A stretch of DNA of 64,000 nucleotides from an uncultured Spirochaetales bacterium (lineage in GTDB: Bacteria > Spirochaetota > Spirochaetia > SZUA-6), in assembly GCA_964596425.1 (NCBI GenBank), contig CAZQTC010000007.1:10294-74293 (forward strand), in the 5' to 3' direction. The notes below the pieces were generated by a model. It did no database searches and was not told the origin of the DNA. It saw nothing but the letters and a program-made list of their open reading frames with translations. Both the position numbers and the translations under genes were made by a program. Of the stretch, positions 2,719 through 61,935 are shown piece after piece (the first letter of the stretch is position 1; every line of letters begins with the position of its first letter).

Positions 2719-4212
2719 TTACCCCTTTACTCTGACAGAGTTAAACTTAAGTCGAAAAATTGAACCTTTATCAGGAGCGGATTGCACCTCGATACTTCCC
2801 CCGTGCTGTTCAACTATGCGTTTTACAATTGGCAGCCCCAATCCCGTACCGTTAGATTTAGTAGTATAAAAAGGCATAAAAATATGCTTTATCTCTCCCT
2901 CACCGAAACCAATTCCCTGATCCTCTACCTCGATAAAGAGATCGTCGTTAATCTCATAGGCCCTCACAGTAACCACACATCCCCTCTTAGAGGCCTCAAG
3001 AGCATTCATAATAAGATTATTCAATACCTGCTCTATTAAACGCTTATCCAGGTAGTACCTTCCCATATTGTCGCTTATCTCCACATTTATAGCAATTCCC
3101 GGGAAATTCCGCGAGGGGATACTCCTGAGAGAGTGATCTACTATCTCAGAAACAGAGCAACTCTCCCTCTCAATCTTAAGAGGCCTTGCAAAATCAAGAA
3201 AATTATTTATAGCAAGATTTAAAGAATCTATCTCATCTATTAATAATCGTGTTAATCTGTTGTAATCCTCCCTTCCGTTGGTAACCTCAAAATCATCTCT
3301 TAGCATCTCTGCCGTAACCTTCATTATACCAAGAGGATTTTTAATCTGATGAGCAACACCCGCCGCCATCTGTCTCACCGCGCCAATTCTTGAAGAGATA
3401 AGGAGCTTTTCTATACCTTCAAGATCGGTGTCTCTCCTGTCCAGGTTGGCTATACTTCTCCCGTTCTGAAGAATAACAAACCTATCGGCAACCTCAAAAA
3501 CCTCATGGGCATTATGTGTAACAAAAATTACGGAAATTCCTCTCCTCTTCGCTTTCAACACGAGGTTTAACACTTCATCCGTTTCGGATTCGGAGAGCGA
3601 AGCTGTCGGTTCATCGAGGATAAGTAGTTTTGTTCCAAAAAAACCTGCTCTTCCCACTGCAACCTTCTGCCTCTCGCCCCCGGATAGGGACTCTATCATC
3701 TTTACCACATTCCCATCGGTAAAACCATTTTCGTCGAGGAACTTCTCCGCCAAATTGTTCATCTTTTTAATATCCAGAAACTTAAACGGACCGATTCGCT
3801 TCTCAATCTCACGGCCCAAAAAAAAGTTTCTTGTAACATCAAGAAGGTCTATCAAGGCAAGGTCCTGATAAACCGTTTCAATTCCCACGCTTCTTGCATC
3901 CGCAGGACATTTAAAATTAACCCTCTTCCCTTCAAAAAATATTTTACCCCTTTCAGGTTTAACAAGACCGATAAGTGTCTTTATCAGAGTGGTTTTTCCC
4001 GCACCGTTGTCCCCCAGCAGCCCCACTATCTCACCCCGCCCAACACCGAAATTCACCCCGTCAAGAGCCACTACCTTTCCAAATCTAACGCTAATTCCTT
4101 CCATATAGACTAGAAAATTCTTGGCAGGAGTCGATCCAGAGGAAGAATGATCCCTACTATTTATCTGTTCGGAGGAAAATTCCATCACCGCGTATTTTAG
4201 CGCGGATTTCAA
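2719..4212 (-). CDS. Soluble chimeric sensor kinase: an N-terminal ABC-transporter ATPase domain fused to HisKA + HATPase_c
   Basis: Residues ~35-270 form a complete ABC nucleotide-binding domain: Walker A GDNGAGKTT, Q-loop VYQD, signature LSGGERQKV, Walker B LLILDEPT, H-loop VTHN. This is followed directly by the H-box AHQIKNPLGI (HisKA) and the catalytic domain N-box (NLIMNALEA), G1 DQGIGF and G2 GTGLGLPIVK. No TM segments are present. The annotated start is TTG; an in-frame ATG lies 9 codons downstream. Confidence 0.8.
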   Translation of the reverse strand: MKSALKYAVMEFSSEQINSRDHSSSGSTPAKNFLVYMEGISVRFGKVVALDGVNFGVGRGEIVGLLGDNGAGKTTLIKTLIGLVKPERGKIFFEGKRVNFKCPADARSVGIETVYQDLALIDLLDVTRNFFLGREIEKRIGPFKFLDIKKMNNLAEKFLDENGFTDGNVVKMIESLSGGERQKVAVGRAGFFGTKLLILDEPTASLSESETDEVLNLVLKAKRRGISVIFVTHNAHEVFEVADRFVILQNGRSIANLDRRDTDLEGIEKLLISSRIGAVRQMAAGVAHQIKNPLGIMKVTAEMLRDDFEVTNGREDYNRLTRLLIDEIDSLNLAINNFLDFARPLKIERESCSVSEIVDHSLRSIPSRNFPGIAINVEISDNMGRYYLDKRLIEQVLNNLIMNALEASKRGCVVTVRAYEINDDLFIEVEDQGIGFGEGEIKHIFMPFYTTKSNGTGLGLPIVKRIVEQHGGSIEVQSAPDKGSIFRLKFNSVRVKG

Positions 4213-5044: not shown

Positions 5045-6970
5045 CTACACAATATAATTACCTCTTTTCATATAATAAGTATGCAGGAGCTTATGGCTCA
5101 ATTCGCTACACGGTCCCTCAGTAAGAAAATCACGGTAAATTTGCACTATGTGAGGATTCTCGTGGGATTTTCTATACTCAAGTGTTTCTTCTTCGGCATA
5201 GATAGCCTCTGCACGTTTGCGCCTAATTTCAGGAGAAGTAGGAATCGGCTGTCCCCCACCTCCAAGGCACCCACCAGGACAGGCCATAAATTCGATAAAG
5301 TGACATTCACTAAACTTACCTCCCCGTTTTATATCATCCAGAACTACCCGGGCGTTGGCCGTTCCGTGTACCACGGCTACCTTTAAAGTGATTCCCCTAA
5401 GAAACTCCCAACTTTCAAAGTGACTTTTAAGAAGTGAGGGAACAGAACCCACTTCGGTAATTGGAAACTCCGCATACTTTATTCCCTCAAAACCCCGCAC
5501 CGGTTCTATTTTCATATTAGGGAATATCTCCTCTACCCTTTTACCAGTAATCAGTTCTATCACAGTCCTAAGAGCCGCCTCCATTACACCCCCGGTAGCC
5601 CCAAAGATAAGTCCAGCCCCAGAAGCCTCCCCAAAAGGCTCATCAAAATTCGATTTGGGTAAAGTAGGCAAATTCAAACCCATCTCTTTTATCATTCCGG
5701 CAAGCTCGCGAGTGGTAACAGCATAATCAACATCTTTAAATCCAGAGTCCTGCATCTCAGGTCTGTTACACTCGTACTTCTTAGCCGTACATGGCATAAG
5801 TGCTACAGTTACAATATCCTCAGGATTTATACCATGGAGCTTCGAATAGTAGGTTTTAATTATTGCTCCAAACATCTGTTGCGGACTCTTAGCACTAGAA
5901 AGATTTTCAATAAACTCAGGATAAAAATACTCACAAAACTTAACCCATCCCGGGGAACAAGAGGTGAACTGCGGAAACCGCACAGACACATCTCCATCTA
6001 CCAATAATTTTTTTAACCTGAGCAATAGTTCGGTTCCCTCTTCGATTATCGTTAAATCAGCTGTAAAATTCGTATCAAAAACCCTATCAAAACCACACCT
6101 ACGGAGCGCCGTATTAAGCTGACGGGTCACCGACGTCCCCGGCGGACATCCAAACTCCTCACCTATAGCAGCCCTTGGACTGGGAGCTGTCTGTATTACC
6201 ACATGTTTAGTAGGATCATCTATAGCCCTCCATACATCATCACTCGAATCATTTTCATGGAGTGCCCCCGTAGGACAATGAACTATACACTGACCACAAT
6301 TAATGCATACAACATCCGCAAGAGGTTTTTCCATAAAACTGCTAATCCTTAACTCATTCCCTCTGCCAACGATTCCCAATGCTCCTACACCCTGTAACTC
6401 CACACACGCCCGAACACAACGCCGGCATTGGATACACTTGTTCATATCTCTTACAATTGAATAACTTGATCTATCTAACCTATAACGCGGTATCTCGGAC
6501 TTACCAAATCTGAAAAAATCTACCCCATACTCCTTCGCAAGACTCTGAAGCTCACAGTTATTATTCTTAACACAGGTAGAACAACTACCATAATGCTCAG
6601 ATAGCAGAAGATCTAAAATGTGCCTTCTCGCTTTCCTTATCCGCGCTGAATAGGTCTTAACCTTTATGGGAGAGGTTATAGAGTACGAACAAGAGGCCTG
6701 CAAATTTCGCTCTCCCTCTATTTCTACAATACATATACGACACACCCCCGCTACGCACAGATCTTCATGATGACACAGCGTTGGAATCTGCACACCTACA
6801 CGTCTTGCAGCCTCCAACACGGTCGTACCAAAAGGCACCCTTACCTCTATGCCATCTATAGATACCCGCACGGTCCCACCAATTCCACCCGATTGCTCTT
6901 TACTCAAATTACTTCCCTGGGAAAAAGTAGAGACCATGCCGGAATCATTCGAAGAATTATATTTACCCAT
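5045..6970 (-). CDS. hydA: [FeFe]-hydrogenase catalytic subunit HydA (multidomain, group A3-like)
   Basis: N-terminal 2Fe-2S ferredoxin-like region plus two 4Fe-4S motifs (CIQCRRCVRAC, CINCGQCIVHCP). H-cluster motifs L1 TSCSPGW, L2 MPCTAKKYE and L3 EFMACPGGCLGGGGQP. The ORF track starts at a TTG at 6988. An ATG at 6968-6970, preceded by GAGGAGG-N9, is the more likely start. Confidence 0.9.
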   Translation of the reverse strand: MGKYNSSNDSGMVSTFSQGSNLSKEQSGGIGGTVRVSIDGIEVRVPFGTTVLEAARRVGVQIPTLCHHEDLCVAGVCRICIVEIEGERNLQASCSYSITSPIKVKTYSARIRKARRHILDLLLSEHYGSCSTCVKNNNCELQSLAKEYGVDFFRFGKSEIPRYRLDRSSYSIVRDMNKCIQCRRCVRACVELQGVGALGIVGRGNELRISSFMEKPLADVVCINCGQCIVHCPTGALHENDSSDDVWRAIDDPTKHVVIQTAPSPRAAIGEEFGCPPGTSVTRQLNTALRRCGFDRVFDTNFTADLTIIEEGTELLLRLKKLLVDGDVSVRFPQFTSCSPGWVKFCEYFYPEFIENLSSAKSPQQMFGAIIKTYYSKLHGINPEDIVTVALMPCTAKKYECNRPEMQDSGFKDVDYAVTTRELAGMIKEMGLNLPTLPKSNFDEPFGEASGAGLIFGATGGVMEAALRTVIELITGKRVEEIFPNMKIEPVRGFEGIKYAEFPITEVGSVPSLLKSHFESWEFLRGITLKVAVVHGTANARVVLDDIKRGGKFSECHFIEFMACPGGCLGGGGQPIPTSPEIRRKRAEAIYAEEETLEYRKSHENPHIVQIYRDFLTEGPCSELSHKLLHTYYMKRGNYIV

Positions 6971-6984
6971 CAAACTTATCCTCC

Positions 6985-8175
6985 TCAAATCTGTTTAGCA
7001 ACTACCCTACCGAGTATCTCATCTCTAAAATAGTTAACAATAGAAAGAAATGCATTCGGACTAGACTGACCAAGACCACACTTACAGGTACATTGCATCG
7101 TCCTGCCCAACTCTATAAGCTCCTCTAAATACGCAATGGAACATTTGCCTTCTTTGAGCAATCTAACACCCTCTAGCAATTTAACATTTCCCAACCGACA
7201 AGGGACACACTGCCCGCAAGACTCTTCACAGAAAAACTCAAGAAAATTCTCAGCCACGCTAAGCATATCTCTATCAGCTCCAAAAACAATAATGGAACCG
7301 CCCGTTGGGATGTCTTCATAAGCCAAAGTAGATGAAAATTCCTCTCTAGGCACACACCGACCCGAGGCTCCACCAACCTGAACTGCTTTCGCATCTTCTT
7401 TCCCAACCTCCCTCAATAACTCGCTAATAGTAATACCCATGGGAAACTCATACACCCCGGGTTTCTCTACATCCCCAGAAACACTAAAAAGCTTGGTTCC
7501 AGTTGATCCCTCCGTGCCAAATTTTTTGAACCATTCTACCCCCTTTTCAAGAAGCACAGAAACTGTGGCAAATGTCTCCACATTATTAACTATGGTAGGC
7601 ATTCCTCTAAAACCGACATTCACGGGAAAAGGAGGTTTATTTCTCGGCTCTCCCCGTTTCCCCTCAAGAGATTCTATAAGAGCAGTTTCTTCTCCACATA
7701 CATATGCCCCGGATCCCAATCTTATACCAATGTCAAAATCAAAACCATCTATGCCCATTATACCACTTCCAAGGAATCCCTCTTTGCGCCTTTTCTCCAA
7801 TACACACTCAAGATGCCGCAACAAATAAGTGTACTCGCCTCGAAGATACACAATCCCTTCACTTGCACCTATAGCAAAAGCCCCAATGGTCATACCCTCA
7901 AAAACCATATCCGCATAATCACTAAGAAGCACCCTATCCTTAAAGGTTCCCGGTTCACCTTCGTCCGCATTACATATTACATATTTCTTCTCTCCGCTCG
8001 CCGCAGCAGCTAAATTCCACTTAATCCCGGTAGGAAATCCGGCTCCACCCCTTCCCTTTAACTTACTCTCCCTTACCTCTTCAACAGTTCTATGTCTTCC
8101 CACCTTTAATGCCTTTTTCAAACCACTTTCAGGCTCGTGAACACCAAAGATTACAGGTCCTGTCTTCCCCTTCAT
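6985..8175 (-). CDS. hydB: NuoF-like NADH-binding flavoprotein subunit of the hydrogenase (HydB), minimal 396-aa form
   Basis: GRGGAGFPTGIKW NADH/FMN-binding motif. C-terminal 4Fe-4S cysteine motif (CGQCVPCRLG...). AGGAGG RBS 10 nt upstream of the ATG. It lacks the extra N- and C-terminal ferredoxin domains of the 600-aa HydB of Thermotoga-type enzymes. Confidence 0.85.
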   Translation of the reverse strand: MKGKTGPVIFGVHEPESGLKKALKVGRHRTVEEVRESKLKGRGGAGFPTGIKWNLAAAASGEKKYVICNADEGEPGTFKDRVLLSDYADMVFEGMTIGAFAIGASEGIVYLRGEYTYLLRHLECVLEKRRKEGFLGSGIMGIDGFDFDIGIRLGSGAYVCGEETALIESLEGKRGEPRNKPPFPVNVGFRGMPTIVNNVETFATVSVLLEKGVEWFKKFGTEGSTGTKLFSVSGDVEKPGVYEFPMGITISELLREVGKEDAKAVQVGGASGRCVPREEFSSTLAYEDIPTGGSIIVFGADRDMLSVAENFLEFFCEESCGQCVPCRLGNVKLLEGVRLLKEGKCSIAYLEELIELGRTMQCTCKCGLGQSSPNAFLSIVNYFRDEILGRVVAKQI

Positions 8176-8177
8176 AC

Positions 8178-8693
8178 CTAATCCGCCTCCTTTCCGTCGT
8201 ATGCAGGATCAACAGAGTTTCCTCTGCATTCCTCTATAATTTCCCTTACCCTGCCAGGGGTCAGCCTGGTGTACACCTTATCGTTAATCAACATTGCCGG
8301 TCCTTGATCGCACATTCCAAGACAGTTAACCCACTCCAGCGAAAACTCGCCATCAGGCGTGGTTTCTCCGAAGGATATACCAAGCTCATTCTCAAGCTGC
8401 CTAGCCACCCTACTCTTACCTGCCATATCACAGGCTATGGTTCGACATAACCGAATAACATAGCGGCCTTTAAGTTTTACATCAAGAAAAGAATAGAAGG
8501 AGACCACACCGGACACCTCAACAGGAGAAATGTTAAAATGCCCGGCAAGCTCCTGTATGGCAAAATCCGGGACATGTCGATATTTCCTCTGTATCTCCTG
8601 CAACACGGGTAACAATCCATCCCTTTTGGAACCAAACTTTCTTACCCAGGTTTTAATATCAGCGCTTAACTTTTCCCTTTCACATAACAACAT
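8178..8693 (-). CDS. hydC: NuoE-like thioredoxin-fold 2Fe-2S subunit of the hydrogenase (HydC)
   Basis: Typical NuoE/HoxE segments (LLPVLQEIQRKYRHVPDFAIQELAGHFNISPVEVSGVVSFYSF, and the CRTIACDMAG / CLGMCDQGPAM cysteine pairs). It is the first gene of the hydCBA operon. Confidence 0.85.
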   Translation of the reverse strand: MLLCEREKLSADIKTWVRKFGSKRDGLLPVLQEIQRKYRHVPDFAIQELAGHFNISPVEVSGVVSFYSFLDVKLKGRYVIRLCRTIACDMAGKSRVARQLENELGISFGETTPDGEFSLEWVNCLGMCDQGPAMLINDKVYTRLTPGRVREIIEECRGNSVDPAYDGKEAD

Positions 8694-8828
8694 CTACCTA
8701 CCTCCGCACTAGGAAAACAAAAATTTTCACCCTTTGTGTTACAAAATTAAAAAAAGTAACACCGTTCAATAATTCACAATATTTTATCGTGACAAAAATG
8801 TCAAGTACTTAATAAAACTCAAGAATAA

Positions 8829-10061
8829 CTATTCGTACCTCAGGGCTTCCTGAGGGGGAAGATTTGCAGCCCTCGAGGCGGGATAAAATCCGGAGAGCAG
8901 CCCCGTTACTACGGAGAGTAACAGAGCAATTACTCCTGTAGCCAGATCGATTATAACAGGCCAGCGGGCAAAATGCCCTATTATATATGAGGCAAGAAAA
9001 GAGAGCCCCAAACCAAACAAGCCACCCCCACCACAGAGAAGGAGGGTTTCGATCAAAAACTGAGCCATAATCTGACTCTTCTTGGCACCGAGAGCCTTTC
9101 TTATACCTATCTCTCTGGTCCTCTCTTTTACGGAAACAAGCATTATATTCATAATCCCGATAGCCGCAACGAGAAGGGCAATTCCGGCAAGTATGGCAAC
9201 ACCGGCTGTTACCGAACCTACCACCTTGTTCACCATCTCCAGTTGTGCCTTCATCTCCGTAACAGAAAACTTATCGTATTTTCCATCCCACTTTCCGTGA
9301 TTCCTGGCAAGAACCGCCAACACTTTCTTTCTTACAACTCCGACCTCCGATAAATTTTTAACCTTGGCAAGAACAGTTTTATATCCCCTACGCATAAAAG
9401 AGAACCTCTTAAAGGCCCCTATTGGCACAACCACTACATTGTTGTAAGTCTTATCAGGATCGGAAATGGAAATTGTATCGGTTTTCTCCTTTCTGGCAAG
9501 AACCCCTATAACCTGAAAGGGGGTTCCAAAGGCAATGAAAAACCTTCCAATAGGATTAAACCCCGGAAAAAAGGTGTCAGCCACAAGACTCCCTATTATC
9601 GCAACCTTACTCTGAGCCCTTACCTCCTCATCTGTAAATATCCTTCCAGCCTTTAATTTATACTCCACAAAATTTATATAGTTCCTGTTAGTTCCAACCA
9701 CAGAAATCTTCTTCTCAAGATTTCCTACCCGAACCACCGTACTTGCAGAAACAATAGGAGCAATATCCTCCATTTCCGGAACATGCTCTTCCAGACTGCG
9801 TAAATCACCGTCACTAATGTATTCAATCCTGTAATGGCGTCTCGTTGAATACGCCGTTTCGTAGTTCGGTGATATATATATCGTATTCGCAGACAGACCC
9901 TCAAATTCCTTCATAATGATAGCCTTACCACCGTTACCCGCAGCAATAACCGTAACCACAGAGGCTATTCCAATTACAATACCCAACAGAGTCAAAAATG
10001 TACGAGATTTGTTCGAGGCAATTGCAGAGATGGCTTCGCCGAAGAGAATCTTAAACATCAC
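8829..10061 (-). CDS. ABC transporter permease, MacB/FtsX family (MacB_PCD periplasmic domain + FtsX 4-TM)
   Basis: N-terminal TM, large periplasmic domain, and C-terminal FtsX-type bundle with the ERTREIGIRKALGA motif. It overlaps the upstream permease gene by 4 bp. Confidence 0.8.
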   Translation of the reverse strand: MMFKILFGEAISAIASNKSRTFLTLLGIVIGIASVVTVIAAGNGGKAIIMKEFEGLSANTIYISPNYETAYSTRRHYRIEYISDGDLRSLEEHVPEMEDIAPIVSASTVVRVGNLEKKISVVGTNRNYINFVEYKLKAGRIFTDEEVRAQSKVAIIGSLVADTFFPGFNPIGRFFIAFGTPFQVIGVLARKEKTDTISISDPDKTYNNVVVVPIGAFKRFSFMRRGYKTVLAKVKNLSEVGVVRKKVLAVLARNHGKWDGKYDKFSVTEMKAQLEMVNKVVGSVTAGVAILAGIALLVAAIGIMNIMLVSVKERTREIGIRKALGAKKSQIMAQFLIETLLLCGGGGLFGLGLSFLASYIIGHFARWPVIIDLATGVIALLLSVVTGLLSGFYPASRAANLPPQEALRYE

Positions 10062-34619: not shown

Positions 34620-36767
34620 CTACATACGTACCCTCAAAAGTCTTGCATTTATTGCAACAATAACCGTGCTAAGAGACATAAGTACTGCCCCGGCGGCAGG
34701 ACTCAAAAGTACCCCAAAACTATACAGAACACCCGCAGCCAGTGGAATGGCAAGCGCATTGTATCCTGTTGCCCATGCAAGATTCTGAACCATCTTTCTA
34801 TAGGTTGCCCTGGCAAGTTTTAGTATCTTAACAACATCGAGAGGGTTACTCCTAACAAGTACTATATCGGCGGTTTCTATAGCAACATCACTACCGGCAC
34901 CAATCGCAATTCCAACATCGGCACTTGCAAGAGCCGGAGCGTCATTAACCCCATCCCCCGTCATTGCAACAACAAAGCCACGCGATTTCACCTCTTTAAC
35001 CCTACTAGCCTTTTCATGCGGCAGAACCTCCGCAAAAACTTCACCTATACCAATTTCTTTTGCAACCCAATTTGCAACCTCTCTGTTGTCCCCGGTTAGC
35101 ATAATGGTACGAACTCCCATACCCTTTAACTTTTCAACAGCCAATTTTGATTCCTCCCTCACAACATCAGCAAGGGCAATTACCCCCTTGGGTTTCCCAT
35201 CGAGAAGGAGATAAACAACCGTCTTGCCCTGTTTAAAGAGATTCGTGATTCGACTATCATCCATATCCACACCCTTATCCTTAAGGTAACCGGGACTAAC
35301 CACCATCACCTCCCTTCCGTCAACACGTCCGATAGCACCCCTACCAGGTATTGCCTTAAAATCCGTTACAGGCAAAACTCTGTTTTCAGGAACATCAATA
35401 GAAATATCAGTCAGATTATCATCCCTCTTTTCGGACGCCTTTTTGGACTCTTCACCGGAAACCATATCACTAGCGCTTGCCTCAACAGAGCGAGAAGTTA
35501 GCGAAAGTACAATACCTTTAGCAATCGGATGCTCCGAGTTCGCCTCCACCGAGGCCGCATAACGTAAAATCTCTTCCTCTCTCATAGAGTGATCCAACAC
35601 AACAATATCGGTTACCCCAAATCTTCCCTCTGTCAGGGTCCCCGTTTTATCAAATATCACAGCTTGAATATTTCTCGCATGCTCAAAGGCCGCCCGGTTT
35701 CGAATTAGAAGTCCGTTCTTAGCAGAAATCGCAGTGGATACCGCAACAACCAGAGGAACAGCCAGACCAAGTGCATGGGGGCAGGTTATAACCATAACCG
35801 TCACAGTGCGCTCCAGAGCAAAGGCAAAATCCTTATGCACAAGGGCAAGCCAGACAAAAAGGGTAATCCCCCCTGCCCCTAAAGCTATAAGGGTAAGCCA
35901 TAAAGCCGCTCTACTGGCCAGGTCTTGACTTCTGGATTTGCTCTCCTGCGCCTGTCTAACGAGTTTTACCACCTGAGAGAGATAGGAATCCTCACCTGTC
36001 TTTTTTATCTCTACCACCAAAGAACCCTCTCCGTTTACGGCGCCACCTATAACTTCATCGCCCTCCCGTTTAACAACGGGCTTGGACTCTCCGGTAAGCA
36101 TTGCTTCGTTTACAGAACTCTCGCCCTCAATAACCATCCCATCTACCGGAAGCTTTTCTCCCGGTTTTACAAGTACTCTATCTCCGACCTTTAAATTCTC
36201 TACAGAAACATCAATTACCCCTCCATCCGGCAACAACTTATGGGCCTCTGAGGGCATCAGCTTTGCCAACTCTTCCAAAGCCTTAGAGGCTCCCATAACC
36301 GACTTCATCTCGATCCAGTGACCCAAAAGCATAATATCCACAAGGGTTACAAGCTCCCAAAAAAACACCTTCCCGGGAAGTCCAAAAACAACCACACTGC
36401 TATAGACATAGGCTGTGGAAATTGCAAGTCCTATGAGACTCATCATCCCGGGTAGTTTCTTTCTAAGCTCCCTAACAAGCCCACTCAAGAATGGCCAACC
36501 ACCGTAGAAAAATACAAATGTAGAAAGGCCAAAAAGAATATAACCGTCTCCCTTAAAGGCAATTAATTCTCTAATCCCGAAAAGTTTCTGAATCATAGGA
36601 GACAGTGCCAGTATAGGAAGGGTGAATACAACAGAAATCCAAAATCGCTTGCGGAAATCAGCTACCATGTGAGCATGGTGCGAGCTATGAGCGTGTTTGT
36701 GATCGTGATCCTCGGGACTATGCTGCATGTGTTCATGATGTTCGTGATGAGTATGTTTATTATCCAT
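34620..36767 (-). CDS. copB: Copper-translocating P1B-type ATPase with His-rich N-terminus and CPH motif (CopB / P1B-3-like)
   Basis: N-terminus [39 protein letters not shown] motif (ITCPHALG). DKTGT phosphorylation site. GDGVNDAP hinge. No CxxC HMA domain. About 35 aa are inserted in the nucleotide-binding domain. Confidence 0.9.
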
Positions 36768-54652: not shown

Positions 54653-55630
54653 TTACAGAGAGAGTCTTTCTCTCCTTTTCGCCGATTCAATCTCTCTAAG
54701 ACACAACTTAACAGACTCAGCCGCCTCCTTGGGTGTCACAATCTCAGAGTTATCGCGTTTTTCCACAGCCTCCACAAAAGCCTTAAGCTCATAGTAATAG
54801 CCGTCTCCGTCCTCCAACTCTACGGGATAAGCCTCTTTCCCCTCGGGGAATACTTTAACCACATCTTGTTTAGAAAAATCCAACTCCACAGTAGCTTCTT
54901 CCATTACAAAAAAAGCTCGCATATTAAAACCAAAACTCTTAGCACATATCCACCCTCCGGTTGCCTGTACCACCATATCTTCATAATCATAGACAGTTGA
55001 TATGTGAGAAATACTTCCGTCCCGCTCAAAAACTCCTCTCGAGAACACCCCCTCAGGTTTACCAAAGAGATGCAAAACCATATCCACATCATGAATATGA
55101 AGATCTAAAGCAGCATTACCCGATTTCTTTCCATCAAACACCCACCCCTCAGATGTCCATACCGGAGGTTGTGAGAAACGAGCAAACTCAGCATACCTCA
55201 CCCTACCAAGAGAATCACTATCTATAAGTTTCTTCACCGCTACATAGGCCGGCCAATAACGTAAGCACTGTCCCACACCAAATAGTCTACCGGTCCTCTC
55301 CGCCGCTTTGATTATCAAATCCGCATCATCAAGAGTCCCGGCAAGAGGTTTTTCACAAAAAACATCGTAACCTCCTTCCATTGCCATAACAGAGGTCTGA
55401 GCATGAAGATGCGTTGGCAAACATATATCCACAAAATCGAATCCCCCACTCTTAAGCATCTCATTATAGTCAGTAAATTTCTCTATATCCTTCGTACCCT
55501 CAATATGGAGAGCCTCCCCATTAGTATCACACAGAGCAGAAACCCTCACCTTATTCCCTAATTTCTCTGTATACACATTAAAATGCATTTTCCCCATAAA
55601 CCCCATCCCAACAATTGCAACTCTTACCAT
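54653..55630 (-). CDS. Gfo/Idh/MocA-family NAD(P)-dependent oxidoreductase
   Basis: N-terminal Rossmann motif VAIVGMGFMGKMH, and a C-terminal alpha/beta dimerisation domain. Confidence 0.85.
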   Translation of the reverse strand: MVRVAIVGMGFMGKMHFNVYTEKLGNKVRVSALCDTNGEALHIEGTKDIEKFTDYNEMLKSGGFDFVDICLPTHLHAQTSVMAMEGGYDVFCEKPLAGTLDDADLIIKAAERTGRLFGVGQCLRYWPAYVAVKKLIDSDSLGRVRYAEFARFSQPPVWTSEGWVFDGKKSGNAALDLHIHDVDMVLHLFGKPEGVFSRGVFERDGSISHISTVYDYEDMVVQATGGWICAKSFGFNMRAFFVMEEATVELDFSKQDVVKVFPEGKEAYPVELEDGDGYYYELKAFVEAVEKRDNSEIVTPKEAAESVKLCLREIESAKRRERLSL

Positions 55631-55802
55631 TTTTTAACCTCTCCTCCACAGCTTAAAATTTAAAAATTAAGGTTGAACCTTACTCCCTGCCCATTATACT
55701 GAAAGGAGTAGTATATTGAAAAGTATCTAGTAGAAGAGCTATCAAATGCGTAATTTGAGAGCAAATCATCACTGGAGAACTAACACCAAGGGAGAACAAA
55801 CA

Positions 55803-56993
55803 ATGAACATACTGGGAGATTTCGAAACCTTACTCAACAAGCAATTTGGTCATCGTCCAAGTCTCTCTTTTCTCTTATCCAACTTTGATAGTATCGAAAA
55901 GTGGAAAGAGAAGGCAAGGCTCAAGGTAAAGGAACTTCTGGCAAGCCCCAGCAATGTACATCCCTCAAATCCCAGGGTTGTTAATAAGATTACATATGAG
56001 GGCCTAGAAATAGAAACTATCAGATGGAAACTCCCATACGGACCAGAAGCAGAGGCTTTTTTCCTTAAGCCGGAGGGAGAAAAAGGCCCTCTGCCAGGGA
56101 TTATTGCAATGCACGACCACGGATCATTCAAATACTATGGGAAGGAAAAAATAACCCGCACAGGGAAAAACATGCACCATCTACTGATAAAGCATCAAGA
56201 AAAATACTACCAGGGGAAAGCCTGGGCGAATGAGATTGCAAAGCTTGGATTTGGAGTCCTAGTGCCGGATGTGTTTACATTTGGGAGCAGAAGAATTGAT
56301 TTCAGTAAAACACCAAAAAACATGTTAGAATCCCTTCCCCTTCCAAAAAACACCCTTTCAAACAACCTGAAAACAAACAATAAGCGCAACGACAAAACTA
56401 GCAGAACAATTCCACCCCCTCGTGCAGTTGAGAATTACAATGCCATAGCCAGAGAGCACGAACATGTAATAGCGAAATCTCTATTCTCTGCAGGAACAAC
56501 TTGGCCGGGTGTCTTTGTAGCGGAGGATATGGCGGCTCTGGACTATCTAACCACTCGACAGGATATAGACAACAATAGGATAGGCTGTTGTGGTCTCTCA
56601 GGTGGAGGACTAAGAACAGATTTTCTCGCAGGGCTTGATGAGAGAATAAAATGCTCTGTAACGGTGGGCTTCATGTCCACGTGGAGAGATTTTGCATTTA
56701 ATATAGCTCACAAACATACATGGATGACCTACCTCCCCCACCTCCCCCGGTATCTGGATTTCCCGGAAATACTGGGGCTACGGGCACCCCTTCCCACTAT
56801 GGTACTCGCCACAACGGAAGACCCCCTCTACAGTCTATCCGAGGTAAGAGAGGCGGAGAAAGAACTATTTTCAATATACGAGAGAGCCGGAGCACCGGAA
56901 TGCTTTCGTTTTAGCTATTACGATGGTCCTCATTACTTTAATCTAGCAATGCAGGAAGAAGCTTTTAAATGGTTTAAGAGGTGGTTACTGTAA
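55803..56993 (+). CDS. Alpha/beta-hydrolase-fold esterase (dienelactone-hydrolase / acetyl-esterase-like)
   Basis: Nucleophile elbow GLSGGG in the IGCCGLSGGGL context, and an upstream HDHG oxyanion-like region. The start is moved to the internal Met MNILGDF, so the N-terminal 19 codons are probably not translated. Confidence 0.55.
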   Translation: MNILGDFETLLNKQFGHRPSLSFLLSNFDSIEKWKEKARLKVKELLASPSNVHPSNPRVVNKITYEGLEIETIRWKLPYGPEAEAFFLKPEGEKGPLPGIIAMHDHGSFKYYGKEKITRTGKNMHHLLIKHQEKYYQGKAWANEIAKLGFGVLVPDVFTFGSRRIDFSKTPKNMLESLPLPKNTLSNNLKTNNKRNDKTSRTIPPPRAVENYNAIAREHEHVIAKSLFSAGTTWPGVFVAEDMAALDYLTTRQDIDNNRIGCCGLSGGGLRTDFLAGLDERIKCSVTVGFMSTWRDFAFNIAHKHTWMTYLPHLPRYLDFPEILGLRAPLPTMVLATTEDPLYSLSEVREAEKELFSIYERAGAPECFRFSYYDGPHYFNLAMQEEAFKWFKRWLL

Positions 56994-57089
56994 TACCGGA
57001 TTCTTCTAAAAAGCGCAAATTTAAAGGAGTATACCAGTCAAAAAGAGAAACATTTGCAAACATAAAACAGAACCATTATAGTAATAAAT

Positions 57090-57992
57090 ATGCGGAGAAG
57101 AGATTTTATAAAAATCCTAAGCTCCGGGATACTCTACTTTGCCGCAAGAGAGATTTTCCCCATAGGTTTATCCACACGTTACGAGGTCTCTCGAATAAAG
57201 AGCAAAAATACCGAAAGAGCAGTTAAAAAAGCTATAGAGCTTGTAGGTGGGATAAATCGATTCGTTAAGCCAGGTGATATAGTTGTTGTAAAACCCAACA
57301 TAGGGTGGAACACTCCACCGCAACTAAAGGCCGATACGGATCCCATAGTGGTAAGAACCATAGTTCATCTATCCTTTCAAGCCCTGGCCTCCAAGGTGTA
57401 TGTATTCGACAGGACCTGTAGTAATCCGAGGCTAGCCTACAGGAACTCGGGAATAGCAAGGGCTGCAGAAGAGGCAGGAGCAAAGGTCCTATACGTTAAT
57501 CGGGTAAGCTCACGGTTATACAAAAAGATAAGAATACCGGAGGGGCGGTTTTTAAGGGAGAGTTTAATCAACAAATACATTCTCGAAAGCGACGTTTTTA
57601 TTGACGTTCCCGTAGCCAAAAATCATGCCTCGGCAATCCTAACATTGGGAATGAAAAATTTGATGGGTATCACAGGCGACAACAGACAGAAGTGGCACTG
57701 GAAGCTTCATGAGGCAATCTCGGACATAAATACGGCAATAAAACCGAATCTAACTGTGATTGACGCCACAAAAATAATGCTTAAAAACGGACCTACCGGG
57801 GGGAGTATGGCATACCTTAAAGAGACTGACATCATAATTGCATCATCCAATGTACTAAGTGCGGATAGTGAAGCAACAAAGCTCTTTGGGCTCAGAGCGG
57901 AGAATATTCCCTATATGAAACTAGGAGCCGAAAAAGGGGTGGGAAAAATATCCGGATATACGATCGGAGCACGTTCACTTGAGGGTTTTTAA
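57090..57992 (+). CDS. DUF362-domain protein with twin-arginine (Tat) signal peptide
   Basis: The N-terminus MRRRDFIKILSSGILYFAA matches the RRxFLK Tat motif. The DUF362 hallmark IVVVKPNIGW is present. No cysteine cluster is obvious. Confidence 0.65.
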   Translation: MRRRDFIKILSSGILYFAAREIFPIGLSTRYEVSRIKSKNTERAVKKAIELVGGINRFVKPGDIVVVKPNIGWNTPPQLKADTDPIVVRTIVHLSFQALASKVYVFDRTCSNPRLAYRNSGIARAAEEAGAKVLYVNRVSSRLYKKIRIPEGRFLRESLINKYILESDVFIDVPVAKNHASAILTLGMKNLMGITGDNRQKWHWKLHEAISDINTAIKPNLTVIDATKIMLKNGPTGGSMAYLKETDIIIASSNVLSADSEATKLFGLRAENIPYMKLGAEKGVGKISGYTIGARSLEGF

Positions 57993-59379
57993 ATTACTAA
58001 AATATCTGCTATTTATCTTCTCCGGTTCTTTCCTCGCCCTATTTACCTACATATTCATTCGTTCTCTCGATCCGTTTTCACTTGTAACAAACTATTTTCT
58101 TCGCTTTGATCCCCTTATCTTCCTAACAAATATAAAAAACGACCCACTTACCATAGGAATCATTTCACTCATCTTCGTCTTAACGCTTCTATTAGGAAGA
58201 TTCTTTTGCGGATGGATCTGTCCCATGGGCACACTGATTGAGATAATAGACTTCATCACCCGGATTATTCCCTTTGGCAGCGCACTTTTTAGAACGAAAA
58301 AAAACCAGCCCCTTAATTTCACGTTTATTAGACATTCCCCTTCCCTCTTTATACTTGCCGTAATAGCACCAACTATTTTCTTTATGCCACCGGTACTTCA
58401 ATTTTTCCATCCCAACATATGGATAGTAAGAATATTTTCTCTCTCCCTCTCAGGAATAATTTTCTTAGCACCACTTATAGTAACATCTCTGATATCGAGA
58501 AGATTCTGGTGTCGTTACATATGTCCCCTCGGTGCTCTCTACGGGCTAATTGCTAAATTTTCCATATTTTCACTAAAAATCAAATCATGCTCCCACTGCA
58601 CACGTTGCAATGCATGCCCAATGGGAGCGGCGAATTATAAAACCGGGGAAATTATCAAAAGCCAATGCATCCTTTGCTTCGAGTACGAATACTCATGTCC
58701 CACCAGAGGATTTGAATACAGCCTCCACACCCTACCACCAAACCTACCAAAGCCAGCATTCCAAACTTATAGCCCTTCAAGGAGAAACTTCTTAAGACAA
58801 TTCTCAACCCTCGTAGGTGGATTAGCAATAGGTAGCATCCTATCCACCATTGAAACCAGAACACGGACAAAACTACTCAGGCCTCCTGGAGTAGTCGACG
58901 AGACAGAATTTATAGAGAGGTGTCTTAGATGTTTTCAATGTGTCCGCTCATGCCCAAACAAAATAATAAAGATAACAGGAGTCGAGGCAGGATTTTCAAA
59001 CTTTCTAACACCCCATCTCTCCTTCGAGGAATACGGTTGCGATTACTACTGTCAGGTCTGCCAAACCGTATGTCCCAATGGAGCAATTCCGCTTCAAAGT
59101 CTCAAATTAAAACAGATCACCCCAATTGGCAAGGCTAAAATAGATACCTCTCTCTGCGTAGTATACAAAAAGGCTACAAATTGCCTCGTATGCGAAGAGT
59201 TTTGTCCGATACCCGAGAAAGCTATAGTACCAATAGAAAAGAGAGTAACAAAGGACAAAAAATCAATCACACTTCGATACCCTCTTGTTATCACCTCCAG
59301 GTGTAACGGTTGTGGAATTTGCGAAGCAAACTGTCCGGTAACCCCCAAAGCCATACAGGTTTTCAAAAAACCTATCTAA
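57979..59379 (+). CDS. NapH/MauN-like integral-membrane polyferredoxin (4 TM with two CxxCP motifs + four to five 4Fe-4S cluster motifs)
   Basis: Membrane CGWICPMGTL and CRYICPLGALYG motifs. Cytoplasmic or periplasmic CxxCxxCxxxCP motifs: CSHCTRCNACP, CLRCFQCVRSCP, CQVCQTVCP, CLVCEEFCP, CNGCGICEANCP. It overlaps the DUF362 gene by 14 bp. Confidence 0.75.
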   Translation: MRVFKLLKYLLFIFSGSFLALFTYIFIRSLDPFSLVTNYFLRFDPLIFLTNIKNDPLTIGIISLIFVLTLLLGRFFCGWICPMGTLIEIIDFITRIIPFGSALFRTKKNQPLNFTFIRHSPSLFILAVIAPTIFFMPPVLQFFHPNIWIVRIFSLSLSGIIFLAPLIVTSLISRRFWCRYICPLGALYGLIAKFSIFSLKIKSCSHCTRCNACPMGAANYKTGEIIKSQCILCFEYEYSCPTRGFEYSLHTLPPNLPKPAFQTYSPSRRNFLRQFSTLVGGLAIGSILSTIETRTRTKLLRPPGVVDETEFIERCLRCFQCVRSCPNKIIKITGVEAGFSNFLTPHLSFEEYGCDYYCQVCQTVCPNGAIPLQSLKLKQITPIGKAKIDTSLCVVYKKATNCLVCEEFCPIPEKAIVPIEKRVTKDKKSITLRYPLVITSRCNGCGICEANCPVTPKAIQVFKKPI

Positions 59380-59383
59380 AACT

Positions 59384-60118
59384 CTATCTATCCTTCAACC
59401 TTCCAAGTCTAAAAACAAAAACGGAAACCTCAAAGAGAAGCCACAGAGGAAGAGCAACTATTATCATAGAAAGGGGATCCGGTGGTGTTACCAATGCTGC
59501 TATAAACATTGTAACAGGAATCACAAAACGACGCACCTTCCCAATGTTCTCAACTTTCAAAATCTCCATCTTTAAGAGAAGGTAGGTAATAGCCGGAATA
59601 AGCACAAGAACCAGATCCACCAGAGCCAGCATCACATAAAAATTCAGGAAGGTGGAAACCGAAAAATGATAATAAATAGCAGAAATGGCAAAGGTTTTCA
59701 CAAACAAGCGGAGAAGATACGGAGAAAACCAAAAAAGCACAAAACCCGTTGCACCGGAAAAAACAAACACTACAACTGTGAGGAGGACTAAAACTTTTCT
59801 CTCATGCGGCAGCAAACCGGGAAGGACAAACCTGAGTACCTGAAGGATAAAAAAGGGGATACTCACAACAAGTGCTGAGAACGCGGAAACCTTAACTCGA
59901 GACAAGAATGGTTCAAAAACGGATATATAGTAAAGTTTAAGCCCGGAAAAATGAACGAGAAAAGTAATAAGTCTAAGGGATAGGTAAAAATAGGCAACCA
60001 GAAAGAATACAAAAAACACCCCAATTGCCCAGAGTATCTTTACCCTTAAATCCTCCAGATGTTCCCAGAAGGAAAAATCGTCAATCTTTTTCTTTATCTT
60101 CCTTGATCTCTTCCTCAA
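59384..60118 (-). CDS. tatC: Twin-arginine translocase subunit TatC
   Basis: Six TM helices, with the TatC N-terminal signature (FWEHLEDLRVKILWAIGVFFV). Confidence 0.85.
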   Translation of the reverse strand: MRKRSRKIKKKIDDFSFWEHLEDLRVKILWAIGVFFVFFLVAYFYLSLRLITFLVHFSGLKLYYISVFEPFLSRVKVSAFSALVVSIPFFILQVLRFVLPGLLPHERKVLVLLTVVVFVFSGATGFVLFWFSPYLLRLFVKTFAISAIYYHFSVSTFLNFYVMLALVDLVLVLIPAITYLLLKMEILKVENIGKVRRFVIPVTMFIAALVTPPDPLSMIIVALPLWLLFEVSVFVFRLGRLKDR

Positions 60119-60263
60119 CCGAAAGATCTTCTCTCTCCTCCAACCCCTTTCTAAACTCTCTTATTCCCCTTCCTATCGAGCGCGCTATATCCGGGATTCT
60201 CTTAGCCCCAAAAATGAGTATAAGAACTGCAACTATAAGGATTAGTTCCCATGTTCCCAACAT
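60081..60263 (-). CDS. tatA: Twin-arginine translocase subunit TatA/E
   Basis: MLGTWELILIVAVLILIFGAKRIPDIARSIGRGIREFRKG: a TM helix, the hinge FG, and an amphipathic helix. It overlaps tatC by 38 bp in a different frame. Confidence 0.8.
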   Translation of the reverse strand: MLGTWELILIVAVLILIFGAKRIPDIARSIGRGIREFRKGLEEREDLSVEEEIKEDKEKD

Positions 60264-60729
60264 ACCTATACTATACTACACGACAAACAAATTTGCCATA
60301 CCGATTATTTCACAATTAAAAATAGACGTACGAAAACCACAGACCAAAGGGGCTCATTGCCCAATTCAATACTCGAGATAAATCCGGGAGCCCTCAAAAT
60401 TGCAGAAATTCTCGACGGTGAACTTAAAGGAAAGGGTCAACGAACTTACCTCATGAGATTCCACTAATCCTCAAACAGAGTACAACCGAATCTTTGGCTT
60501 TGCTTTGGAAACGATGAAATTACAAATCACATTCACCCAGCATTCCTCTGTCCCCCTTTGGTACCTGGAGAGATTAACAGCGGCTCAAGAGTTCAATTTT
60601 TCACTTGATTTTTTGCCTGCACCGGTATATAATTAATTCGGATTATGAAAAAATTAAACAATATATTAGCAATATTAACAAATAATTTACTTTATAATAA
60701 AGAATTATATTAATTTTGGACAAAATAGA

Positions 60730-61935
60730 ATGAAGCACAATAGCCCGCTTACCAGCTCTTTCTCCTCAACCAGAAAAACCACCGATTTAAGGGAAAGAAA
60801 CATATCATCTGTACTCTATACCCTTCTTACCCATGATAATATATCACGCAAACAAATAATCGAAATAACGGGACTCGCTCCCTCTACAGTATCAAGCATA
60901 ACAGACTATCTCCTGGAAACAGGAATAATAAAACGAATAGGTAATTTAAGTTCTTCGGTTGTTGGTCGAAAATCTGACCTGCTTGCCCGTAACCCTAAGG
61001 CAAGTTTTGTTGGTTCCGTTTATCTAACCCCGGAACGCTGTCAGGTGGCAATAGTAGATTTTAATTATGAAATTGTAGAAAAACGCTATATAGATTTTGA
61101 GGAAGGATTTAAAGAATCCAAGACTTTTAGGATTATTACTCTCCTAAAAGAACTACTCCACAATCAAGACAATCAAAACAATCTGCATGCAATTAGCCTG
61201 GCACTGCCACATCATCCATTCGACAACCGAATAATCATAGACGCCTTTAAAAATGAATTCGATCAGACAATCTTCCCAATAAACAACGTCGAGGCAATGG
61301 CAAGTTATGAGTACTATGCTCACCTAAGCAAGCGACTACACACTCTCATTTTCGTGTATATAGGTACGGGAATAGGTTCGGGACTAATAATAGACGGAAA
61401 ACTTTACAAGGGAATCTCTGGAAACGCAAGTGATCTCGGACATGTGTATATAACCGATAAACCTCTTGTTTGCAGATGTGGAAGGAAAGGGTGTCTGGAA
61501 ACCGTTTCTTCCGAACTAGCATTATCCAAGGCATTTACAGAACATTTTGAACTAAATCGTTACTTAAAAAGAGAAGAACTAATTCAATTTATCCGTGAAG
61601 GAATAAAACGTAAAGACGATTACATCATCTCCAAACTCGAAGAGGCTGTTTTCTACCTTAGCAGGGCATTGTTCAACTTAGCTTCCATCATCGATCCCCA
61701 GGAGATTGTAATAACAGGAAGAATAAACCAGCTCAATCCGTACTTTTCCAACATGTTAGAAACGGCCTATGTCGAACATTCCAAAATTGACAGATTCCCA
61801 CTCATTCCTCTAAGTTTTATCCCTCTACACGAAGAGGCAGGATTAAAGGGGTCCGCTATGTATTCATTTATCAGCTTATACTGCAATTCAAGCCAGAGAA
61901 AATCCATATTAAACACCGGCAATAATAAACCTTAA
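60730..61935 (+). CDS. ROK-family transcriptional regulator (second copy)
   Basis: N-terminal wHTH (QIIEITGLAPSTVSSITDYL). ROK zinc motif CRCGRKGCLETVSS. Confidence 0.8.
   Translation: MKHNSPLTSSFSSTRKTTDLRERNISSVLYTLLTHDNISRKQIIEITGLAPSTVSSITDYLLETGIIKRIGNLSSSVVGRKSDLLARNPKASFVGSVYLTPERCQVAIVDFNYEIVEKRYIDFEEGFKESKTFRIITLLKELLHNQDNQNNLHAISLALPHHPFDNRIIIDAFKNEFDQTIFPINNVEAMASYEYYAHLSKRLHTLIFVYIGTGIGSGLIIDGKLYKGISGNASDLGHVYITDKPLVCRCGRKGCLETVSSELALSKAFTEHFELNRYLKREELIQFIREGIKRKDDYIISKLEEAVFYLSRALFNLASIIDPQEIVITGRINQLNPYFSNMLETAYVEHSKIDRFPLIPLSFIPLHEEAGLKGSAMYSFISLYCNSSQRKSILNTGNNKP

Follow-up and report, generated by a model that had tools for sequence, protein, structure and literature searches.

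How might a fermentative spirochaete use a DUF362 protein that carries a twin-arginine translocation (Tat) signal and is encoded directly before an iron-sulphur (FeS) membrane protein? This question is raised by a gene pair on contig CAZQTC010000007.1 of an uncultured Spirochaetales bacterium, in a 64-kb stretch (hereafter the window). An earlier reading of the sequence alone (the original prediction) had described the pair as an uncharacterised redox module, in which a Tat-exported DUF362 protein is coupled to a NapH-like polyferredoxin and a partner catalytic subunit is missing. Our analysis suggests, with a probability of roughly 0.6, that the gene pair encodes a two-subunit, periplasm-facing oxidoreductase.

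A gene pair conserved across phyla

In the window, the 3' end of the DUF362 gene overlaps the start of the gene for a membrane protein of 466 amino acids (aa), hereafter the polyferredoxin. The 14-bp overlap had been part of the original prediction and its coordinates are confirmed (Table 1); the TTG start of the polyferredoxin has a GGAG about 10 nt 5' of the codon, and the overlap is predicted to couple the translation of the two genes.

A genome scan with a close DUF362 alignment (A1; 51 homologues, 56-86% identity) found 35 loci in named genomes, all from Spirochaetota except the divergent locus L037. With the window itself counted, L037 excluded and downstream DNA required, 33 spirochaete loci were informative. 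The polyferredoxin gene lies directly downstream of DUF362 in all of them (33/33); among these polyferredoxin copies, an assembly gap interrupts one and frameshifts break another. The spacing of the two genes varies among the related loci, from overlap through direct abutment to a gap of up to ~370 bp. Outside the spirochaetes, a gene for a Tat-signal DUF362 protein is followed by a gene for a fused polyferredoxin (504-528 aa) in 8/8 contexts inspected, which include Calditrichaeota, KSB1 and a 5.2-Mb genome. The partner proteins translated from four loci (L038-L041) have the same Cx3CP pair, internal twin arginine and RPPG motif as the polyferredoxin of the window. Because the pair recurs in every informative related locus, chance is excluded as an explanation of the pairing, and DUF362 and the polyferredoxin form a conserved genomic unit across phyla.

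The reciprocal test, which started from the polyferredoxin, covered 80 metagenomic loci with 29-49% identity, 68 of them informative for DUF362. A DUF362 gene was present in 54 of the 68 (47 directly upstream, 7 elsewhere in the locus), and the internal RR..PPG signature was retained in 76 of the 80 distant polyferredoxins.

In the divergent L037 (DUF362 40% identity), positions 6848-9714 encode a Tat-signal DUF362 protein followed by separate NapH-like (322 aa) and NapG-like (232 aa, with its own Tat signal) proteins, and the predicted products identify this locus as an unfused form of the same module. Near it lie genes whose translations, inspected by eye, contain motifs resembling formylglycine-generating-enzyme (FGE) domains.

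Neighbour clustering of the spirochaete loci yielded no recurrent family besides the polyferredoxin except tatC, the flanks being housekeeping synteny, and it found no other conserved redox partner or substrate-related gene. The position of tatA-tatC immediately downstream on the opposite strand, also predicted originally, is borne out by Pfam and NCBIfam matches in the window. Convergent tatC-tatA genes directly follow the pair in 9/33 spirochaete loci and in 0/8 loci from other phyla; the adjacency of tatAC was rejected as a defining part of the module, since it holds in so few of the spirochaete loci. Conserved neighbours elsewhere might have assigned the pair to a known pathway, as the original prediction had allowed; we looked for such neighbours and no known pathway emerges. 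The claim that a partner catalytic subunit is missing is correct in that no nitrate-, sulfite- or arsenate-type reductase is encoded here or in the ~120 related loci, but it overlooked DUF362 itself, for which a LarA fold is predicted (see below).

The loci that lack DUF362 point to its role. Four polyferredoxin loci without DUF362 have an adjoining convergent gene for a Tat-signal reductive-dehalogenase-like protein (PF13486 and two [4Fe-4S] motifs; Table 1). Because a dehalogenase-like enzyme takes the slot of DUF362 in these loci, DUF362 may be the catalytic subunit of the pair. By this analogy, the fused polyferredoxin would be a modular conduit that serves Tat-exported catalytic subunits with cofactors. 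This agrees with the general view of NapH-like proteins as modular carriers of electrons across the membrane (PMC8238504). In locus L051, an aldehyde-ferredoxin-oxidoreductase-family gene follows the polyferredoxin.

Related conduits are known. NosR, PceC/RdhC and the flavinylated NapH-like systems (Meheust et al. 2021, eLife e66878) also use a NapH-type (PF12801) conduit to periplasmic reductases or from oxidases, and the RdhA-like genes that adjoin some fused polyferredoxins add to the likeness. Those systems, however, have a flavinylated, flavin mononucleotide (FMN)-binding domain outside, whereas a fused NapG-like four-cluster ferredoxin and DUF362 are found here; the inspected loci showed neither an ApbE gene nor one for an FMN-binding protein. 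MsrPQ (YedYZ), a periplasmic methionine-sulfoxide reductase system, is similar in that its enzyme, which has a cofactor and is exported by Tat, receives electrons from a membrane subunit; fused dual Sec/Tat versions of it exist (PMC5449189). It differs in using molybdopterin and haem b instead of a LarA-like protein and FeS clusters, with different folds and no sequence relationship.

Some loci have additional genes at the pair. Two diverged Tat-signal DUF362 paralogues follow the polyferredoxin in L107 (7034-9774), L100 (6872-9091) and L116 (7544-9538). A gene for a NapC/NirT-family multihaem cytochrome stands beside the pair, or beside the polyferredoxin alone, in L041 (7169-8668, minus strand), L045 (5945-7450, minus strand) and L077 (3181-4668, plus strand); this cytochrome might connect the module to the quinone pool by another route. 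In the FCB-group loci L038, L039, L040, L042, L043 and L045, a fusion of STAS and RsbW-like (HATPase_c_2) domains is encoded downstream of the pair, and most of these loci continue with genes for a small transmembrane (TM) protein, Zn_peptidase_2, HtrA, HSP20, GrpE and DnaJ. This synteny may reflect co-regulation with genes of envelope or protein stress and, by analogy with MsrPQ, hints at a possible repair role of the module. The HATPase_c_2 gene was also considered as a redox partner and rejected, as its product is a cytoplasmic STAS/RsbW-type regulator.

Architecture of DUF362 and the polyferredoxin

The twin-arginine signal originally assigned to DUF362 (MRRRDFIKIL) is conserved, and the objection that the true start might lie downstream of it fails. 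The start codon is secure, since the frame is closed 5' of it by a stop at 57063-57065 and the first ~37 codons offer no other start. The N-terminus reads MRRRDFIK, then ILSSGILYFAA, and the pattern M-x-R-R-D/E-F-L-K with a short hydrophobic stretch is kept in the 51 close homologues. R3 and R4 are invariant in a diverse alignment of Tat-type DUF362 proteins (A4; 62 homologues, 32-64% identity), and an exhaustive search found an N-terminal RR motif in 118 of the 150 nearest cluster representatives. The Pfam TAT_signal profile matches several DUF362 homologues, one of them above threshold, and gives no match to the DUF362 of the window. The conserved RR motif, the secure start and the tatC and tatA genes encoded immediately downstream together predict that DUF362 is a Tat substrate, with a signal that appears both real and ancient.

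The profile searches proposed for the two proteins returned PF04015 for DUF362 (Table 1) and NapH/MauN (TIGR02163) for the membrane protein. PF04015 scores 145.8 bits against a gathering cut-off of 24 and is covered from position 1 to 198 of 200. K68-P69-N70, K177, H179, K189, G193, H203, D225 and G234-P235 are invariant in the 62 diverse Tat-type homologues, in which no cysteine is conserved, and long DUF362 relatives have no fused redox domains.

We modelled DUF362 with AlphaFold2 from 51 sequences (predicted local distance difference test 88.8, predicted template-modelling score 0.86). A Foldseek search of the PDB with this model gave 19 significant matches, all of them members of the LarA family of nickel-pincer nucleotide enzymes, and 205 residues superpose on LarA. 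The model predicts that DUF362 has the LarA alpha/beta fold. A search of PDB sequences with the DUF362 profile returned nothing relevant. DUF362 and DUF2088, the LarA N-terminal domain, share the Pfam clan CL0471, and DUF362 serves as an outgroup in the LarA literature (PMC11770544). The LarA N-terminal domain binds the cofactor, and LarA homologues with a single catalytic histidine are known (PMC12611868).

Alignment with hhalign, for which the LarA reference sequence was checked against PDB 5HUQ, placed H179 of DUF362 on the catalytic His174 of LarA and K189 on the cofactor-tethering Lys184, in a weak match (E 0.033) within which the D-x2-I-x7-H-x9-K spacing is identical in the two proteins. 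In LarA, His108 is the second catalytic histidine and His200 a nickel ligand, to which the invariant H203 of DUF362 may correspond. The position of LarA His108 appears, by inspection only, to correspond to Asp107-Arg108 in DUF362. We regard the equivalence of H179/K189 to LarA H174/K184 as tentative.

The description of the membrane protein as a NapH-like polyferredoxin was right as far as the NapH match goes, with NapH/MauN TIGR02163 (E=9.6e-21) over aa 44-214 and two Pfam Fer4_5 matches. It was incomplete in overlooking the NapG-like C-terminal half and the internal S267-R-R-N-F-L-R. NapG (NF007012, E=6e-29) and MauM/NapG (TIGR00397, E=4e-23) match aa 263-463. The equivalog cut-offs are unmet for NapG (NF007012, 101 bits vs 269), NapH (NF007013, 67.1 vs 234), TIGR02163 (74.5 vs 213) and TIGR00397 (82.1 vs 178.85). 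Taken together, these profiles identify the membrane protein as a predicted NapH-NapG fusion.

The motif counts of the original prediction need correction. Its two CxxCP motifs are in fact of the form Cx3CP (CGWICP and CRYICP, that is, C77GWIC81P and C178RYIC182P) and are placed on the cytoplasmic face. Four to five CxxCxxCxxxCP motifs had been counted; six Cys-motif segments exist besides the Cx3CP pair, and the strict form occurs in only two (aa 315 and 442). The motifs predicted to be cytoplasmic are CxxCxxCxxCP at 204 and CxxCx6CP at 230, and the periplasmic four-Cys motifs start at 315, 354, 393 and 442. In the alignment of 41 polyferredoxin homologues, the cysteines are invariant or nearly so. 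The cytoplasmic FeS region (58588-58701, aa 204-240) has only seven cysteines and an invariant Glu237, a composition that would fit a 3Fe-4S cluster or a ligand other than Cys.

Hydropathy analysis showed four strong hydrophobic segments (aa ~9-27, 59-77, 122-140 and 149-167). Between the two halves, S267-R-R-N-F-L-R is followed by a weakly hydrophobic helix (TM5) and then by TRTRTKLLRPPG; R268, R269 and R301-P-P-G304 are invariant in the 41 homologues. Crude Hessa-scale sums are +5.0 for TM5 vs -1.2 for TM1 and -1.1 for TM2, with family medians of 4.0 vs 1.8 (TM1) and -0.3 (TM2). The tail after TM5 has charges of +4/-0 and is net positive in 38/41 homologues. AlphaFold2 gave one continuous helix at aa 266-291, and a Foldseek search of the PDB with the polyferredoxin model returned nothing significant, the best match being the FwdF polyferredoxin (E 0.08). 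By the positive-inside rule, the N-terminus, the Cx3CP pair and the seven-Cys region (aa 204-240) are predicted to lie inside and the four four-Cys motifs (aa 315-452) in the periplasm.

A family of NapH-NapG fusions has been described by Tooke et al. (2017, eLife e26577), who dealt with membrane insertion only and named neither partner nor function (PMC5449189). In their polyferredoxin, that of delta proteobacterium MLMS-1 (Q1NSB0), Sec inserts four helices, the fifth is released to Tat, and a NapG-like four-cluster domain is outside; Sec and Tat dependence has been shown experimentally for the MLMS-1 protein in E. coli only (PMC5449189). The polyferredoxin of the window is predicted to have every sequence feature of these dual Sec/Tat-inserted proteins, namely the NapH-NapG fusion, five TM helices, twin arginines before a weak TM5, positive charges after it and FeS motifs on both sides, a likeness that was judged from the described hallmarks without a direct alignment to Q1NSB0. 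What the present analysis adds is the genomic pairing of this family with Tat-signal DUF362.

The cofactor and the rival explanations

Genes for synthesis of the nickel-pincer nucleotide are linked to the module in some lineages. On a single strand of L107, larE-larC-larB (Table 1) are followed after 117 bp by the fused polyferredoxin, a gene for an S-adenosylmethionine-dependent methyltransferase and two Tat-signal DUF362 genes. L104 has the same larE-larC-larB-polyferredoxin order up to the contig end, and in L112 a convergent larE adjoins Tat-signal DUF362 and the polyferredoxin. The polyferredoxins of L104 and L107 are 81% identical, and either is only 37% identical to that of L112, which places the lar linkage in two independent lineages. 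No LarA (DUF2088) gene was found among the Pfam-scanned open reading frames (ORFs) of L104 and L107. The lar-linked DUF362 proteins keep the RR motif, K177, H179 and K189, and all but one divergent paralogue keep H203. By our rough estimate, for which no statistic was computed, chance would produce well under one lar adjacency among ~120 loci.

Hundreds of prokaryotes make the nickel-pincer cofactor but have no LarA homologues (PMC13524815). The new nickel-pincer user families found so far are aldo-keto reductases and an ornithine cyclodeaminase, and DUF362 is not among them. LarA homologues occur in Spirochaetota, and therefore cofactor synthesis occurs in this phylum. In the searchable literature, we found no paper that joins nickel-pincer or Lar with twin-arginine or polyferredoxin. 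We tentatively propose that DUF362 uses the nickel-pincer nucleotide or a relative of it as cofactor, which Lys189 and His203 would hold while His179 acts as acid/base; we would put this somewhat below an even chance. More tentative still is the proposal that Tat-exported DUF362 represents a new class of nickel-pincer (or related) enzymes, the first extracytoplasmic one and the first wired by FeS clusters to the membrane, which would carry out net redox chemistry on a periplasmic substrate.

We hypothesize that the two subunits work as follows. DUF362 would fold and take up its cofactor in the cytoplasm, and such loading would explain why a protein without an FeS motif is exported by Tat. The loaded protein would then be exported by TatAC and, as the gene linkage suggests, dock as the catalytic subunit on the NapG-like domain. 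The polyferredoxin may carry electrons between the cell interior, where quinol or a cytoplasmic low-potential donor would serve, and the active site of DUF362. The analogy with the reductive-dehalogenase-like loci suggests that electrons most likely flow outward, in which case the module would be a reductase and provide an extra electron sink for a fermenter.

Several observations weigh against a LarA-like DUF362 at the centre of this scheme. With a broader DUF362 profile, the alignment shifted to the LarA C-domain and was non-significant, and the H179/K189 match was not reproduced. PF09861 (DUF2088/Lar_N) did not match any of ten diverse DUF362 members even at E<=10. DUF362 has 300 aa, ~120 fewer than LarA (~420 aa), and lacks the LarA SGGRK loop and most of the ~150-aa C-terminal substrate-binding domain. 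Neither the 64-kb window nor the flanking DNA of the other ~120 loci contains lar genes, and L100, a close relative of L107 (polyferredoxin 80% identical), has no lar genes upstream. Moreover, DUF362 is missing within 5 kb of the polyferredoxin in 14 of the 68 loci. Set beside the LarA superfamily (PDB 5HUQ, 9EIA, 7S91, 9Q3J and 4NAR), DUF362 is also unusual in its predicted export by Tat and in its pairing with an FeS conduit; this pairing implies net redox chemistry, unlike that of LarA, in which the hydride is returned internally (racemisation). DUF362 is, by its model, a LarA-fold protein, yet it stands outside the LarA family as currently defined.

The module might thus have the same architecture with a different cofactor in DUF362, for example a simple His/Asp/Lys metal centre, the lar adjacency being incidental or lineage-specific. 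The missing lar genes, the unstable LarA alignment and the non-conserved Gly-rich SGGRK loop are what this explanation has in its favour. We consider it unlikely, since the fold is LarA-specific, a curated clan ties DUF362 to a cofactor-binding domain, and the invariant His-x9-Lys spacing is identical to that of LarA; in addition, the lar genes lie operon-like with the module in both lineages, more often than the rough chance estimate allows, and no LarA gene in the lar loci accounts for them otherwise. Quite improbable, in our view, is a non-catalytic DUF362 that would help the periplasmic FeS domain as an accessory factor, assembly factor or chaperone, the true partner being encoded elsewhere or being a small molecule. 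DUF362 is uncharacterised, substrate-related genes are not linked to it, and the FCB-group pair adjoins the proteostasis genes for HtrA, HSP20, GrpE and DnaJ, all of which would suit such a role. Nevertheless, the enzyme fold, the invariant set of polar residues (His/Lys/His/Asp) and the conserved Tat signal of DUF362 itself argue for catalysis, as do the slot shared with a bona fide catalytic type (RdhA-like) and the two diverged paralogues in some loci, which are expected of enzymes with different substrates.

A further explanation would make the polyferredoxin a common quinol dehydrogenase of the NapGH type whose classical periplasmic reductase (Nap, Nrf or Nos) has its genes elsewhere, and the adjacency of DUF362 would have no functional meaning. 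The polyferredoxin resembles NapGH of E. coli and Wolinella succinogenes, in which a NapH-type membrane subunit likewise has two Cx3CP motifs and FeS motifs on the cytoplasmic side and the four-cluster NapG is Tat-dependent (PMC5449189), and the best NCBIfam matches of the polyferredoxin are NapG, NapH and MauM/N. It departs from them in being a single fused polypeptide, in having DUF362 as a partner and in its fermentative spirochaete host. The NapG and NapH scores fall well short of the equivalog cut-offs (101 vs 269; 67 vs 234), no napA, napB or napC was found in the examined part of the window or in the related loci, nap, nrf and nos genes as a whole are likewise absent from the window and the related loci, and the linkage to DUF362, including translational coupling, is conserved across phyla. 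An orphan NapGH is thus largely refuted by the sub-cut-off scores and by the absence of nap, nrf and nos genes, and we give this explanation very little chance. The two-subunit, periplasm-facing oxidoreductase is the reading that we prefer.

Genomic features and biological meaning

Table 1. Positions and supporting matches of the features discussed; coordinates of L loci are those of the respective locus.
Feature	Sequence	Coordinates	Strand	Details
DUF362 gene, predicted Tat export	window	57090..57992	+	300 aa; PF04015 E=2.3e-42
Predicted twin-arginine signal peptide region of DUF362	window	57090..57149	+	aa 1-20, MRRRDFIKILSSGILYFAAR
Codons of invariant His179, Lys189, His203 (candidate cofactor-binding/catalytic triad)	window	57624..57698	+	alignment
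Overlap of DUF362 3' end with polyferredoxin TTG start	window	57979..57992	+	14 bp
Polyferredoxin gene	window	57979..59379	+	466 aa, TTG start
NapH-like half, aa 1-245	window	57979..58713	+	TIGR02163, Fer4_5 x2, hydropathy, Cys motifs
Internal twin-arginine motif S267RRNFLR, weakly hydrophobic TM5 and positive tail to RPPG	window	58774..58890	+	alignment, Hessa-scale sums
NapG-like half, aa 305-466, predicted periplasmic	window	58891..59379	+	NF007012, TIGR00397, four 4-Cys [4Fe-4S] motifs
tatC	window	59384..60118	-	PF00902 E=2.8e-35; TIGR00945 E=8e-32
tatA	window	60081..60263	-	PF02416 E=7e-18; TIGR01411 65.5 bits, cut-off 53.9
Reductive-dehalogenase-like gene	L062	6781-8334	-	PF13486, Tat signal
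Reductive-dehalogenase-like gene	L064		-	PF13486, Tat signal
Reductive-dehalogenase-like gene	L079	6757-8130	-	PF13486, Tat signal
Reductive-dehalogenase-like gene	L117	4685-6061	-	PF13486, Tat signal
larE	L107			TIGR00268 316 bits, cut-off 150
larC	L107			PF01969 E=6e-131; TIGR00299 203 bits, cut-off 90
larB	L107			NF033503 281 bits, cut-off 175

The stop codons of tatC and the polyferredoxin are convergent and 4 nt apart. As called (TTG at 60118), the tatC ORF and the end of tatA share 38 nt (60081-60118, minus strand); because the Pfam TatC match begins only at residue 19, the start of tatC is probably over-called. The ATG of DUF362 has no Shine-Dalgarno sequence, and a promoter-like TTGCAA-17-TATAGT ends 8 nt upstream of it (57053-57090, plus strand). 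The DUF362 mRNA might be leaderless, with a promoter match that is not above shuffled expectation. The promoter and terminator scan of the region likewise gave counts no higher than shuffled expectation, and an Rfam scan of 55500-61000 found no riboswitch or regulatory RNA, the one match being a spurious miRNA.

The fermentative, H2-evolving context that had been proposed for the organism agrees with the genes at 5045-8693 (minus strand), which encode a HydABC-type [FeFe]-hydrogenase composed of a HydA of 647 aa (PF02906 and PF02256) and of NuoF-like and NuoE-like proteins (396 and 171 aa, respectively). Elsewhere in the window, a 497-aa ORF (2719-4212, minus strand) looked unusual in joining an ATP-binding cassette (ABC)-transporter ATPase to HisKA and HATPase_c domains, and a P-type ATPase with a strikingly His-rich N-terminus (34620-36767, minus strand) is probably a heavy-metal transporter.

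Whatever the cofactor, the pair represents a widespread, putative two-gene periplasmic redox module that is undescribed in the searchable literature. Gene linkage nominates DUF362 as the main partner of fused polyferredoxins across Spirochaetota, Calditrichaeota, KSB1 and other phyla. DUF362 is also a concrete candidate for the organisms that make the nickel-pincer cofactor without LarA, given its predicted LarA fold, its invariant Lys and two His residues and the larE-larC-larB linkage in some lineages. If the pincer reading is true, a partner of the dual Sec/Tat polyferredoxins would be identified and some of the LarA-less cofactor makers would be accounted for. DUF362 would then be a categorically new type of nickel enzyme, one that takes pincer-nickel chemistry beyond racemisation and hydride shuttling into FeS-coupled redox catalysis in the cell envelope, and fermentative anaerobes would have an electron sink or source that has so far gone unrecognised.

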